A stretch of 52,499 nucleotides of DNA, from the NCBI GenBank assembly GCA_041288095.1, contig JBGGMJ010000009.1, positions 1-52,499 of the forward strand, written 5' to 3'. The position numbers and the translations under genes were made by a program. This document shows, piece after piece, positions 46,094 to 52,499 of the stretch. The notes below the pieces were generated by a model. That model made no database searches. It was not told the DNA's origin and was given only the letters and a program-made list of their open reading frames with translations. This stretch comes from Myxococcota bacterium. GTDB taxonomy: Bacteria > Myxococcota > XYA12-FULL-58-9 > JALHOP01. Each line of letters opens with the position of its first letter. Positions within the stretch are counted from its first letter, which is position 1.

Positions 46094-48214
46094 ATGACAG
46101 ACGTGCAACTTGGCGCGACGTCCACCGACGCGGAGACTGACTCCCTATCCGGTGACGACCTCGACGCTCCGGCCCTCAGCGAGAAGAGGGCGCCGAATCT
46201 CGACACCGCCGCGGTGGATTTCGCAAAGCTTCCCGAAACCGCTCCCCGTGCCTTCGAAGACTTCCCGGTGTCCGACGACATCAAGGGTGCTTTGGCGGAC
46301 ATGGGCTACACCTCACCGACGCCGGTTCAATGTGGCGTCGTGACCGATGCCGCCGCCGGCTTGGACCTCGTGGTCCAGTCGAAGACCGGTTCGGGTAAGA
46401 CCAGCGCTTTCGGCATTCCCATCCTGCACCGCATCGTAGCGGGCAGCGGCGCACCCGGGCATCCGCGCGCGCTGGTGGTCGTGCCAACGCGCGAGCTGGC
46501 GCACCAAGTCGCCGCCGAGCTGCGGCAGCTTGCGGCCCGCAAAGGCACGAAGACGCTGGCGGTCTACGGCGGCGTTCCCATGGGCCGGCAAATCGCCGTG
46601 CTCAAGGCGGGCGTCGACATCATCGTCGGCACGCCGGGTCGCTTGCTCGACCACGTGCGTCGCAAGAATCTGTCGCTCTCCGAGCTCGAGACCTTCATCC
46701 TCGACGAAGCCGACGAGATGCTGTCGATGGGGTTCTGGGATGACGTCACCGCCATGCTCGGCATGGCTCCGAAGACGCGCCAGACCATGCTGTTCTCGGC
46801 GACGCTGCCGTACGAAGTCGCCAAGGCGGCCGCGCAGTACTTGCGCGATCCGGTGCGCGTCGACCTCTCGGGCGACAAGCTCTCGCTCGACGGTATCGAG
46901 AACCACGTCTTCCACGTGGTCCCCGAGATGCCGAAGCCGCGCCAGCTGCTGTACGTGCTCGAGCGCGAGCAACCCGAGAGCGCGATCATCTTTTGCAACA
47001 CGCGCAACGAGACCGAGATGATCGCCAAGTTCCTGACCACGTCCGGCTTCATCGCCGAGCCGCTGTCGGGCAACTTGAAGCAGAAAGAGCGCGAGCGCGT
47101 GATGGGCCGCATCAAGGCCAAGGAGCTGCGCTACATGGTCGCGACTGACATCGCGGCCCGCGGCATCGACATCACGGACCTTTCGCACGTCGTTAATTAC
47201 TCGTTACCCGAGTTCACCGAGGTCTTCTTGCACCGCGTCGGCCGCACCGGCCGCATGAGCAAGAAGGGCACCGCGGTCAGCTTGGTCGATGGGATGGGCT
47301 TGGGCACGTTGACCAAGCTCGAGCGGGACTTCGGGATCAAATTCACCACCCAGAAGCTGCCGCCTGAAGAAGAAGCAATCGCCTTACGGAGTAAGCGCAT
47401 CATGAAGGAATTGACCGAGAAGGCGTCAGTCGCCGAGATCGGACAGCACGTTTCCGCGGCCCAAGAGATTCTGGGCAGCGCGACGGCGTCGCAAATCGTT
47501 GCCTATCTGTTGAAGTCGTACTTCAACACCCAAGCGTCGGACGCCGAGCGCCGCAGCCGCAGCGCTCAAGATCGCGAACCGGGACGTGAGCGCGAGCCTG
47601 AACGCGATCGCGGACCTGAACGCGATCGCGGACCGCGTCCCCCGCGTGGCGACCGTCCCGAGCGCAGCAGCGCCAGCAGCAGTGGTGGCAGCGAGCCCCG
47701 CGGTGACCGCGGTAGCGGACCACGTGTGGACGGCCCTGCCTCCGCCGAGGGTGAAGGCGGGCGTCGTCGCCGCCGTCGCCGTCGTGGTCGCGGCCGTGGC
47801 GAGCGCAGTGACAACGGTACGTACATGGAGACGCTCGACGCGGCTGAGCTGCTCGCTCGTGAGCCGGGTGCGTCACCGGCCCCTGCCGCCGATGGCGGCG
47901 AGGGTAGCACCAGCCACGCCAATGGCGTCGCGCCGGTCAATTCCGGCATCCCGGCGATCGACGTGGTCGAAGATGGCTTCAAGCGTATGCGCGTGAATGT
48001 CGGCTTCGATGACGGCTTCAAGGGCAAGGGCGCGGTGGCGAAGAAGATCGCCTCGCTGGCCGGCCTCAACGAAGGCATCGTTCAAGAGGTCGAGGCGCGA
48101 CGCGACCACTCCGTGCTCAAGGCCACTCCCGAGATCGCCGAGCTGGTGCTCGAGCGCGTCGACGGCGCGACCATCGGCAAGAAGGTCGTCGTCATCAATC
48201 TCGCCGGTCAATGA
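46094..48214 (+). CDS. DEAD-box RNA helicase with Arg-rich region and DbpA-like C-terminal domain
   Basis: TGSGKT, PTRELA, TPGRLLDH, DEAD, SAT, ARGID, HRVGRTGR. Confidence 0.96.
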   Translation: MTDVQLGATSTDAETDSLSGDDLDAPALSEKRAPNLDTAAVDFAKLPETAPRAFEDFPVSDDIKGALADMGYTSPTPVQCGVVTDAAAGLDLVVQSKTGSGKTSAFGIPILHRIVAGSGAPGHPRALVVVPTRELAHQVAAELRQLAARKGTKTLAVYGGVPMGRQIAVLKAGVDIIVGTPGRLLDHVRRKNLSLSELETFILDEADEMLSMGFWDDVTAMLGMAPKTRQTMLFSATLPYEVAKAAAQYLRDPVRVDLSGDKLSLDGIENHVFHVVPEMPKPRQLLYVLEREQPESAIIFCNTRNETEMIAKFLTTSGFIAEPLSGNLKQKERERVMGRIKAKELRYMVATDIAARGIDITDLSHVVNYSLPEFTEVFLHRVGRTGRMSKKGTAVSLVDGMGLGTLTKLERDFGIKFTTQKLPPEEEAIALRSKRIMKELTEKASVAEIGQHVSAAQEILGSATASQIVAYLLKSYFNTQASDAERRSRSAQDREPGREREPERDRGPERDRGPRPPRGDRPERSSASSSGGSEPRGDRGSGPRVDGPASAEGEGGRRRRRRRRGRGRGERSDNGTYMETLDAAELLAREPGASPAPAADGGEGSTSHANGVAPVNSGIPAIDVVEDGFKRMRVNVGFDDGFKGKGAVAKKIASLAGLNEGIVQEVEARRDHSVLKATPEIAELVLERVDGATIGKKVVVINLAGQ

Positions 48215-48221
48215 GTCGACG

Positions 48222-48713
48222 ATGATGCGGCTGGCGCTCACACTGGGGTTCGCTCTCGTGGTGAGCGCCGTCGCATCGTCGGCTTCGGCGCAGGTTACGG
48301 CGGCGCGTTTCTCGATCACCATCGACGGCTATGAGCTGGCAGTGGTGTCGAGCGTCAGCAGCCTCGGCTCCTACAGCGAAGTCATCGAAAGCACTTCGTC
48401 GGGTCCCGGTGGCGTGCTGGTCGTCAGGCGTGTGCCCGGCAAGACCCGCGCGCGCGACGTCGTCCTGAAGCGGGCGTTTTCGCCCGACACGACCCTCAAT
48501 GCTTGGCGCGAGGCCGTCGAGCTCGGTGACCTCGCGGCGGCGATCAAGTCGGTGACGCTCACTGGCTACAACACGACCGGCGAGCCCGTAGTTCGCTATC
48601 ACCTCGAAAACGCCTGGCCGAGCACCCTCGAAGTGTTCACCGACCAGACCACCGGCCTCCTGATGGAGACGGTCACGCTGGTCTGCGACCGCATCCAGCG
48701 CGTCTCACCTTAA
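48222..48713 (+). CDS. T4 gp19-like phage tail-tube protein with Sec signal peptide
   Basis: MMRLALTLGFALVVSAVASSASA signal; RFSITIDG, VPGK, VVLKRA, W, RYHLENAWPS, METVTLVCD tube motifs. Confidence 0.85.
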   Translation: MMRLALTLGFALVVSAVASSASAQVTAARFSITIDGYELAVVSSVSSLGSYSEVIESTSSGPGGVLVVRRVPGKTRARDVVLKRAFSPDTTLNAWREAVELGDLAAAIKSVTLTGYNTTGEPVVRYHLENAWPSTLEVFTDQTTGLLMETVTLVCDRIQRVSP

Positions 48714-49249
48714 GGGAAAGCGCGCCGGCAGCCGGTGTGCGTGAGCACCACCGTCTCGCGCAAGCCTTGCGCGGCCGGCGTGACCTCGAGCGCGCTGGGC
48801 CATGCGTTGCTCAAGCTCCAGCGGCCGATGACGCCGAGCTCGTCATCGACGAGAGTCAGCGTCGCATCCTTGGTGGCGGGCTCGCCTTCTTCGATGGCGG
48901 TGCGCCAGCTCGTGAGCGACAGGTCGTAGCTCGCGAGTCGCGTCAGGGTGATGTCCTGGTAGAGCGCTGTGCCGGGCACGACGCCCCCGGCTGTTTCGAC
49001 CAACGCGTTTGCCCCGCCGACGCCGCGCACGAGAGGGAAGACGCCGAGGCTTGCGCCCTCGACCTGCAGGACCCAGTTGATCGCTGACTCCGGTACGCAG
49101 CTGCCGCCGTCACCGTCACACACGCCGCAGACGTCCACGACGCAATCGTCATCACCCGATGGGTCGTCGTCGTGATTCGAGGAACCCCCCGATGAGCCTC
49201 CGCAGGCGCATAGAGCCGTGATGGCGACGGTTATGGCGAGACGGGACAC
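48710..49249 (-). CDS. lipoprotein with Cys-rich motif and divergent gp19-like tail-tube domain
   Basis: TALCAC lipobox, DVCGVCDGDGGSC, then VPG, DITLTR, SWR, RWSLSNAWPS, ETVVLTH. Confidence 0.75.
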   Translation of the reverse strand: MSRLAITVAITALCACGGSSGGSSNHDDDPSGDDDCVVDVCGVCDGDGGSCVPESAINWVLQVEGASLGVFPLVRGVGGANALVETAGGVVPGTALYQDITLTRLASYDLSLTSWRTAIEEGEPATKDATLTLVDDELGVIGRWSLSNAWPSALEVTPAAQGLRETVVLTHTGCRRAFP

Positions 49250-49357
49250 GCAGCCACCATGAACCGCGGTTTCGGCCCGTGCAACCGCTGGTGGTCGAGC
49301 CCGATCTGTCGGGCCCGCGATCTATGTTCGTTCTCGCAACAACGCGAGGTTTGAAAC

Positions 49358-50044
49358 ATGGAACGTCGTCGCAGTCGTGGTGAAGCCGAAATCGAAGCTC
49401 TTCTGGCGAAGCTCCCCCCGGGCAGTGATCGTCACGCTTGCTTGAGCGCGGCGCGTGACTTCAAGGCCTCCTGGGTTGCCCTGGGCGACCGCCTCACCAA
49501 GCTGCGGGAGACGGGCCAGTACGCCCAGTGGGGCTACAAGACCTTCGAGGCCTACGTGCGCAACGAGCTGCGTATGAAGCCCGACACGGCCAACAAGCTG
49601 ACGCGCAGCTACTCCTTCCTGCGCGATCACGAGCCCGAGGCGCTGTCAGCGCCCATCGCCCGCGAGCTGCCGCCCCTCGACGTCGTCGATCTGCTCTCAC
49701 GCGCCCGTGAGAAGGCCAAGGTCAGCGACGAGCAGTTCGACAACATCCGTCACGAAGCCTTCGACGCCGACGAAGGCCCGATGACCCGCTCCGAGGTCAT
49801 GAAGCGCTTCCGCGAGATCGACCCAGACGCGTTCAAGCCGCAGCCCAAGAAGGCCGGCGGTGCGGTTGCTGCTGACGGCAACGTCCGAAAAGCGCTACTG
49901 TTGGCCGAGCGGCTCGAGAGCTTGTTGGTTGCAATTCAAGGCTTGTCGGAAGATGCACAACGTCACGCCCAGTCTGTAACCGTCGAGCTGCGAACCATCT
50001 TCTTGGAAACTCAGCAGCAGCAGCCAGAGGCGAACGCTGCGTAG
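49358..50044 (+). CDS. conserved hypothetical helical protein
   Basis: FKASWVALG...WGYKTFEAYVRNEL motif; typical codon use; upstream of cysS. Confidence 0.75.
   Translation: MERRRSRGEAEIEALLAKLPPGSDRHACLSAARDFKASWVALGDRLTKLRETGQYAQWGYKTFEAYVRNELRMKPDTANKLTRSYSFLRDHEPEALSAPIARELPPLDVVDLLSRAREKAKVSDEQFDNIRHEAFDADEGPMTRSEVMKRFREIDPDAFKPQPKKAGGAVAADGNVRKALLLAERLESLLVAIQGLSEDAQRHAQSVTVELRTIFLETQQQQPEANAA

Positions 50045-52367: not shown

Positions 52368-52499
<132 letters not shown>

Follow-up and report, generated by a model that had tools for sequence, protein, structure and literature searches.

The window analysed here, a stretch of 52,499 nucleotides of Myxococcota DNA, is the entire contig JBGGMJ010000009.1 of an assembly (GCA_041288095.1) of 5.85 Mb in 212 contigs that is 89.98% complete. 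Near its right end lie two convergent genes, hereafter A and B, which code for homologues of the inner tube protein of phage tails and contractile injection systems (CIS), each with an N-terminus of the exported type (Table 1). The two genes meet tail to tail, the stop codon of A (TAA, 48711-13 of the + strand) overlapping with that of B (TAA, 48712-10 of the - strand) in TTAA, and the ATG of A follows the stop codon of a DEAD-box helicase gene (46094-48214; Pfam DEAD and Helicase_C) by 7 nt. The flanks are housekeeping genes by their Pfam matches: a Ser/Thr kinase gene upstream of the helicase, the helicase itself and, beyond B, after a 108-nt spacer and a divergent gene for a 228-aa protein without a Pfam family, the gene for cysteinyl-tRNA synthetase (CysS). 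An earlier note on this DNA, made from the sequence alone, had described the arrangement in the same way, and its coordinates, codons, spacing and flanks were all verified.

A and B are homologues of tail tube proteins

A and B are tube-fold homologues. Both exceed the cut-off of PF06841 (28.2 bits), A with 67.6 bits (E 1.3e-18) and B with 37.5 bits (E 2.4e-9); A also passes TIGR02241 (66.5 bits; cut-off 62.4), below which B remains at 33 bits. The motifs from which the earlier note had assigned the two proteins to the gp19-like tube family are present in both translations, as VPGK in A and VPGT in B, VVLKR and ITLTR, W, NAWPS, and ETVTL and ETVVL. Neither protein reaches the NCBIfam equivalogs CIS1 (A 27.4 bits, B 13.6; cut-off 220) or CIS5 (A 31 bits, B 11.5; cut-off 260), and PF05638, the family of Hcp proteins from type VI secretion systems (T6SS), is absent among their Pfam matches at E up to 1. 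A has no match in PHROGs at E up to 0.01, and a Q-like PHROGs match of B (E 0.0089) was judged spurious. PADLOC has no family for A, B or the 228-aa protein.

When a profile of the relatives of A was compared with solved structures, the best match was the CIS tube of Streptomyces coelicolor (8bl4, E 2.4e-31), followed by the tubes of AlgoCIS and the Anabaena CIS, Afp1 and Pvc1. The AlphaFold2 model of mature A has a mean predicted local distance difference test score (pLDDT) of 94.9; in Foldseek its top match is again the S. coelicolor tube (9gts_1a, template modelling score, TM, 0.76, 30% identity), and the best matches are all CIS tubes, followed by phage tubes and Hcp. By the model and these matches, A keeps the full tube fold, a beta-sandwich with the long hairpin.

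Export signals

Signals were judged from hydropathy, pattern and conservation in orthologues, the lipobox being a PROSITE-style pattern run as a regular expression. A begins with MMR, continues with LALTLGFALVVSAV (14 hydrophobic residues) and ends its leader with ASSASA before a Gln, with small residues at -3 and -1; these are the n-, h- and c-regions of a Sec leader for signal peptidase I, and the mature protein predicted from them has the first strand of the domain at its very start. The leader is kept in both orthologues, P0002 (66% identical) and P0003 (63%), which have SGSA and SGAA before the Gln, and the three proteins are all entered in the database as 163-aa products. In the DNA of the sister species G002, the ATG of A is conserved, its spacing from the helicase stop is equally 7 nt and synonymous third-position changes occur in the leader. 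A has a pair of in-frame GTG codons at codons 13-14.

The lipobox pattern matches B at Cys16, its G002 orthologue at Cys17 and a 489-aa protein of G017, described below, at Cys21, the residues at which lipidation is predicted; the cysteine of B is conserved in G002. Thus, the Sec-type leader of A and the lipoprotein signal of B, both named in the earlier note, are borne out as predictions. Behind the signal of B, the motif GDDDC..D.CGVCDGDG.SC.P of the linker, in which Pfam has no family, is conserved in G002 despite an overall identity of 52%. The cysteines of the linker may be disulfide-bonded, and their conservation in pairs would be a sign of an oxidising, extracytoplasmic location. In the protein database, B is stored as a 137-aa product that starts from a downstream GTG; we prefer the long form because the upstream leader and the Cys-rich linker are conserved in the sister species.

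Table 1. Positions in the window of genes A and B and of the elements within and between them.
Feature	Position	Strand	Description	Basis
Gene A	48222..48713	+	Tube-fold protein, predicted to be exported; 163 aa plus stop	PF06841, TIGR02241, AlphaFold2, Foldseek
A signal peptide (predicted)	48222..48290	+	Codons 1-23 (MMR, hydrophobic core, ASA), with Q24 as the predicted first mature residue	Sequence, orthologues
Mature tube domain of A	48291..48710	+	140 aa	AlphaFold2, Foldseek, profile match
Stop codon overlap of A and B	48710..48713	.	TTAA, convergent	Sequence read
Gene B	48710..49249	-	Lipoprotein-type tube-fold paralogue; 179 aa plus stop, GTG start	PF06841
Tube domain of B	48713..49090	-	About 126 aa	PF06841; partner pLDDT 85-86, taken from the complex model with A
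B linker	49091..49201	-	Gly/Ser- and Asp-rich; four conserved cysteines (C36, C41, C44, C51)	G002 alignment
B signal peptide with lipobox (predicted)	49202..49249	-	ITVAITALCA, then C16	Pattern match; cysteines aligned with G002
Spacer between B and the 228-aa gene	49250..49357	.	Presumed site of the B promoter

Modelled co-assembly of A and B

Complex prediction was run with three mature A chains and three B domains, each with its own alignment and in a 3:3 ratio of our choice, in three runs with three controls. The interface score ipSAE was 0.70, 0.70 and 0.68 (median 0.70), the best control reaching 0.00, with at least 95% contact agreement between runs and a partner pLDDT of at least 84. 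Each B contacts two different copies of A in the model, so that the two proteins alternate around a ring, which is the hetero-hexamer whose prediction the earlier note had proposed. Of 80 solved complexes, 58 reach the ipSAE mark, as do 2 of 110 mismatched pairs, rates that hold only roughly here because custom alignments and multiple copies were used.

No match in the genome to other families of an injection machine

Across the whole genome, PF06841 matches only A and B, and there is no match to PF04984 (Phage_sheath_1), PF17482 (Phage_sheath_1C), PF04965 (GPW_gp25), PF04865 (Baseplate_J) or PF05954 (Phage_GPD, gpD/VgrG), families each of which was found in 2 or 3 of 14 control genomes. What the earlier note had remarked for the window, that it has no sheath, baseplate or spike, is thereby extended to the 89.98%-complete genome. 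With no sheath neighbour, no baseplate or spike match, scores below the CIS1 and CIS5 cut-offs and hydrophobic leaders, A and B do not look like the tube proteins of a CIS.

History of the pair within the genus

In the sister species G002, the helicase, A, B, the 228-aa gene and CysS stand in identical order, and the convergent stops overlap in CTAG. The B orthologue of G002, which aligns over its full length, came from the genome search; the word-indexed protein database gave only B itself. Two other species of the genus lack the pair. In G001, only 139 nt (L125 4550-4688) separate the helicase from the 228-aa gene, consisting of about 50 nt of the 5' end of A with two 1-nt gaps and then of sequence upstream of the 228-aa gene, which reads as a deletion of roughly 1 kb that took both A and B. 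In G003, the gap measures 727 nt (L126 2511-3237) and has no match to A or B at E 1e-3; one frame reads as a hydrophobic leader that is followed by a Cys and, after it, DDDC, with a weak match to the N-terminus of B (E 0.055), and is possibly a remnant of the B leader. The same gap also holds a 169-aa open frame of unrelated sequence. Retention in G002, together with the scars in G001 and G003, indicates that the pair is ancestral in the genus and was lost at least once as a unit; it is missing in two of the four species examined, that of the window included in the four.

Between the window and G002, the rate of nonsynonymous substitution (dN) is 0.32 for A and 0.41 for B, with ratios to the synonymous rate (dN/dS) of 0.43 and 0.48, as against a dN of 0.04-0.09 and a dN/dS of 0.085-0.15 for five neighbouring genes. 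These ratios, being below 1, point to functional genes under purifying selection that are nonetheless fast-evolving, and the loss in two congeners marks them as dispensable. The earlier note had called the tube protein domesticated, a term that fits in so far as purifying selection persists, though on genes the cell can do without.

Leader-bearing tube proteins form a large class

A search of the word-index database gave 104 close homologues of A, among which the stretch before the tube domain is bimodal: in 68 it has 5-18 residues and is non-hydrophobic, in 36 it has at least 28 residues and a hydrophobic core. An exhaustive phmmer search with A over 1.84 billion cluster representatives gave 1221 proteins at E up to 0.001, of which the best 150 were read. 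By a hydropathy rule, 98 of these 150 bear a leader, which is plain in 83, has an RR motif in 12 and a lipobox in 3; the sample is biased, the query having included its own leader and the reading having covered the top 150. Inspection by eye adds about 11 twin-arginine leaders, with Ala/Gly-rich cores below the hydropathy cut-off, among the 52 unflagged proteins. Ten cluster look-ups led solely to metagenome records, at most named 'phage tail-like protein'.

Leaders of the twin-arginine translocation (Tat) type, with SRRxLL and Ala/Gly-rich cores, were noted in L034 (9881-10426), P0119, P0127, P0132, P0148, P0172, P0190, P0198, P0252 and P0254; the Pfam TAT_signal match of L034 is weak (13.4 bits, E 0.081). 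Such leaders suggest that some tube proteins are exported already folded. In the alignment, the long hairpin region of several leader-bearing relatives is shorter by about 20 residues.

In a tree of the 104 homologues, the leader state changes at least five times, compared with about 30 times on average for shuffled labels, and none of 500 shuffles was as low; the well-supported branches alone are compatible with a single origin of the leader state. The clade of the window stands on a long branch (1.11). By their sequences, then, A and B appear to be part of a large class of tube proteins exported by the Sec, Tat or lipoprotein route.

Genomic context of the relatives

When one genome was scanned for each species, 51 loci were obtained, and the N-termini were read for 49 of them (L011-L059), 12 being classed as leader-bearing. 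One (L011) is taken as the G002 locus, since gene order and lengths of the open reading frames are identical. The others are L034, of a Chloroflexia metagenome-assembled genome (MAG), with a Tat-like leader; L035-L038, L046, L047 and L059, of Actinomycetota MAGs, L036 and L059 being frameshifted; L037, L041 and L042, of Gemmatimonadota (L037 falls within the Actinomycetota range L035-L038 as well); and L043, of Casimicrobiaceae.

The sheath family PF04984 was sought in 18 genomes, the 12 leader-bearing ones and six signal-less controls. Nine of the 12 gave no match to it, and three have a match at least 264 kb off or on another contig; inside the 20-kb locus it was found in none of the 12. All six controls have the family, inside the 20-kb locus in four (G054, G055, G057 and G058), probably in the locus in G056 and outside it in G053, and in five of the six further tube paralogues lie about 3.5 kb downstream. 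Close signal-less relatives of A (48% identity), from Kutzneria, Streptomyces, Krasilnikovia and Ilumatobacteraceae, adjoin sheath genes. The survey of neighbourhoods that the earlier note had called for therefore finds leader-bearing homologues not routinely in CIS loci. Their neighbour genes are heterogeneous, and none is conserved across lineages beyond close relatives.

We also sampled 401 genomes of the phylum, of which 150 have PF06841, 113 have PF04984 and 42 have the former without the latter. Among the 42 is G213, which is flagged unpublished and was left out of the locus follow-up. From 37 genomes, 30 loci were obtained and 27 scored with a domain model; leaders were found only in L110, L111 and L115, the other 24 proteins being leaderless, about 154-158 aa long and mostly of one conserved type. 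Absence of PF04984, with leaders in 3 of 27 scored loci, was thus rejected as a proxy for export in the phylum. The leaderless type (L099-L109 and others) starts MAVIGTPRSFHKKFKF or similar and is common in genomes without a PF04984 match; either its sheath belongs to another family or it is another kind of orphan tube.

Paired and fused tube domains

Adjacent pairs of leader-bearing tube genes occur in the window, G002, G023 and L038. G017 (same order as the window) has a 489-aa protein (L005 1057-2526, - strand) that combines two tube domains with a lipobox and collagen triple-helix repeats. Ten long representatives were scanned, and eight of them have two PF06841 stretches, three of the eight (P0116, P0156 and P0186) with collagen repeats; in P0143, a single tube domain is joined to immunoglobulin (Ig)-like and MBG domains. 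The G017 protein, P0109, P0116, P0156 and P0186 share a layout in which a lipoprotein or secreted protein carries repeated Cys modules (..CPYGGS....YACNG..), collagen repeats and two C-terminal tube domains; P0109 also touches DUF7151. Collagen repeats imply trimers, and a trimer of chains with two tube domains each would bring together six such domains, a pseudo-hexamer.

In a tree of the domains, A groups with the CIS-derived subfamily and B with other single-domain leader-bearing proteins, at moderate support (83 in the Shimodaira-Hasegawa-like approximate likelihood ratio test, SH-aLRT), and domain 1 and domain 2 of the fusions fall into groups of their own. Pairings of tube domains therefore arose more than once. 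A and B are no recent local duplicates, and the tree rejects their orthology with domains 1 and 2 of the fusions.

A different fusion was observed in Gemmatimonadota (L041 9285-10244, L042 6264-7178, P0097 and P0213), where a signal peptide is followed by an unassigned domain of about 150-190 aa and then the tube domain. The genes adjoin those of a protein of about 1245 aa and a thiolase-like protein, the latter conserved among those genomes. Pfam has no family in the N-terminal domain; its AlphaFold2 model, from a four-sequence alignment, is poor (pLDDT 52.6), and a 17-residue VgrG-like motif found for L041 and L042 in a search of PDB sequences is not significant (E 0.13-0.24).

Other features near the pair

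The 228-aa protein (49358-50044, + strand) shares 88-98% identity with its counterparts in the other three species of the genus, and its gene keeps its position between helicase and CysS in the species of the genus. A scan of 47900-49500 for the sigma-70 consensus gave no promoter-like site, and a terminator scan of the same region gave a single terminator-like site, which lies within the helicase gene and on the opposite strand. The C-terminal low-complexity region of the helicase, rich in Arg, Gly, Asp, Glu and Pro, contains an 18-nt repeat in 3.6 copies (47570-47634). A tandem repeat of GCAATCG (7 nt, 18.9 copies, 100% matches; 52368-52499), open in several frames, reaches the end of the contig and is probably the cause of the assembly break. 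A lookup of sequencing runs for the locus listed no RNA run; two runs from a single study, labelled soil metagenome, contain half or more of the sampled words and are possibly the source sample.

Discussion

We favour, at a probability of roughly 0.55, the reading that A and B form a lipid-anchored, tube-type ring in the envelope, with no injection machine. A would be exported by Sec and released by signal peptidase I; B would be exported, lipid-modified at Cys16 and held at the membrane through its flexible, probably disulfide-bonded linker. Outside the cytoplasm, as modelled, the tube domains of both proteins would form a six-membered ring through the usual lateral contacts of tubes, most simply A3B3, tethered by the three lipid anchors of B, and further rings of A could stack on it. 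A and B would thus be extracytoplasmic descendants of a CIS inner-tube protein that work without sheath, baseplate and spike, as an accessory, fast-evolving envelope structure, and we think a displayed scaffold or a docking ring more probable than a long filament. The three observations that would have told against the earlier note came out the other way: both proteins match the gp19 family, the leaders are conserved and the leader-bearing homologues do not lie in CIS loci. Its interpretation stands as far as tube homologues, export-type N-termini, the lack of sheath and baseplate families and a modelled co-assembly are concerned, but not in its long non-contractile appendage; polymerisation into one has no support, no gene for outer-membrane passage or assembly accompanying A and B.

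We put forward more tentatively, at somewhat under even odds, a wider proposal: several phyla would have reused the inner tube of injection machines as free-standing, extracytoplasmic hetero- or pseudo-hexameric rings, perhaps short tubes, exported via the Sec, Tat or lipoprotein pathway and either membrane-tethered or collagen-stalked, with A3B3 as the two-gene version. If so, the rings could provide a new type of conduit or docking site in the envelope, or could mislead incoming phage tails as decoys.

Several points weigh against an envelope ring. Export of A and B is something we infer from sequence features; the two GTG codons of A, 13-14, might in principle allow a leaderless product, and one gene caller places the start of B downstream of the leader. 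About 10% of the genome is missing, so the absence of CIS genes falls short of proof. The favourable complex prediction may echo tube hexamers of known structure that the model has memorised; we chose the 3:3 ratio, and with A and B on opposite strands, under separate promoters, nothing enforces equal amounts. The fused proteins would speak for a ring of A and B by analogy only, A and B being non-orthologous to the fused domains. No partner gene is conserved across lineages and there is, hence, no functional clue. Finally, relaxed constraint on little-used genes would also be compatible with the raised dN/dS and with the loss in two congeners.

The appendage of the earlier note, in which B forms a membrane-anchored starter ring and A polymerises into a long, non-contractile tube or filament beyond the envelope, seems to us improbable. 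A does retain the full tube fold with its long hairpin, B could act like the paralogue that initiates a CIS tube, and A scores slightly better against the adaptor CIS5 than against CIS1, both scores being far under their cut-offs. Moreover, a preprint on the secretome of Accumulibacter in a granule-forming community reports a Phage_T4_gp19-domain protein as the most abundant in a cluster of short, beta-rich extracellular proteins. However, no tape measure, secretin or other gene for outer-membrane passage lies nearby, and no neighbour is conserved in other lineages. The relatives set their tube domains on the ends of collagen stalks or beside Ig-like and MBG domains, an arrangement that is head-like rather than polymer-like; those with a stalk favour closed, ring-shaped heads at least equally, and the shortened hairpin region of several leader-bearing relatives also speaks against a filament.

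We judge it just as doubtful that A and B act in the envelope as a decoy or an exclusion factor. In that case a ring resembling a tube, in the periplasm or on the surface, would block incoming phage tails, tailocins, CIS or T6SS by binding to their tip, tape measure or tube end. Phages are known to have lipoprotein exclusion factors, among them Ltp and Llp. The accessory, patchy distribution of A and B, with loss and scars in two of four species of the genus, would suit such a role, as would a dN 4 to 10 times that of the neighbours, as in arms-race proteins; but the lack of PADLOC families and the setting between helicase and CysS, which is no defence island, argue against it. Less probable still is that the tube fold serves exported proteins as a non-oligomeric binding or adhesion module, with no ring or tube at all. 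P0143, in which the fold is coupled to domains typical of surface proteins, and the highly variable neighbourhoods are consistent with this, whereas the lateral interface of A and B was modelled with confidence, and the recurrent pairing or duplication of the domain and its fusions to trimerising collagen would be hard to explain. That A and B are remnants, located in the cytoplasm, of a CIS or prophage that has decayed, their 'signals' the product of wrong start codons, can appeal to the 137-aa entry of B, the GTG codons of A and the 24 leaderless loci of the phylum, but is very unlikely in view of leaders and a B linker whose protein sequences are conserved despite a divergence of about 40-50%, a dN/dS below 1, a genome with no other CIS remnant in the searches with PF06841 and the five CIS families, and equivalent leaders, clear Tat and lipobox types included, in at least 98 of the best 150 representatives.

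Comparison with known systems

Tail-tube proteins are, by the textbook, cytoplasmic parts that work only inside a sheath on a baseplate. A wide, machine-free class of exported tube proteins, if true, would be a second, unstudied life of the fold in the cell envelope, and both the annotation 'phage tail protein' and the use of PF06841 as a marker of extracellular contractile injection systems (eCIS) would mislabel such genes. A survey of eCIS takes PF06841 as an eCIS core domain and a study of Myxococcota MAGs takes it as the eCIS tube. A full-text literature search, which covered main texts, turned up no account of leader-bearing PF06841 proteins. A and B together would offer a simple two-gene system in which the assembly of extracellular tube rings and their binding partners could be tested.

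By sequence profile and fold, the closest known protein to A is Cis1, the inner tube of the cytoplasmic CIS of S. coelicolor (8bl4, 9gts). Unlike Cis1, A and B carry leaders, of the Sec type in A and of the lipoprotein type in B; the genome gives no sheath, baseplate or spike match, and the flanks are housekeeping genes. With the eCIS tubes Afp1, Pvc1 and Alg1 (AlgoCIS) and the adaptors Afp5 and Pvc5, A shares its fold (TM 0.71-0.76) and Pfam family; those proteins, however, are cytoplasmic and assemble on a baseplate, within a sheath, unlike the exported-type A and B. Hcp of the T6SS has a tube fold distantly related to that of A (Foldseek E 1e-5 to 1e-4) and forms stable six-membered rings in vitro without a sheath, but it leaves the cell through the T6SS and not through Sec, and A and B have no PF05638 match. 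Collagen-stalked surface proteins are known in bacteria, such as BclA of the Bacillus exosporium and streptococcal Scl. The 489-aa protein of G017, P0116, P0156 and P0186 resemble these in having an N-terminal anchor or signal, collagen repeats and a C-terminal head; A and B themselves have no collagen repeat, and in the relatives the place of a C1q/TNF-like head is taken by two tube domains.

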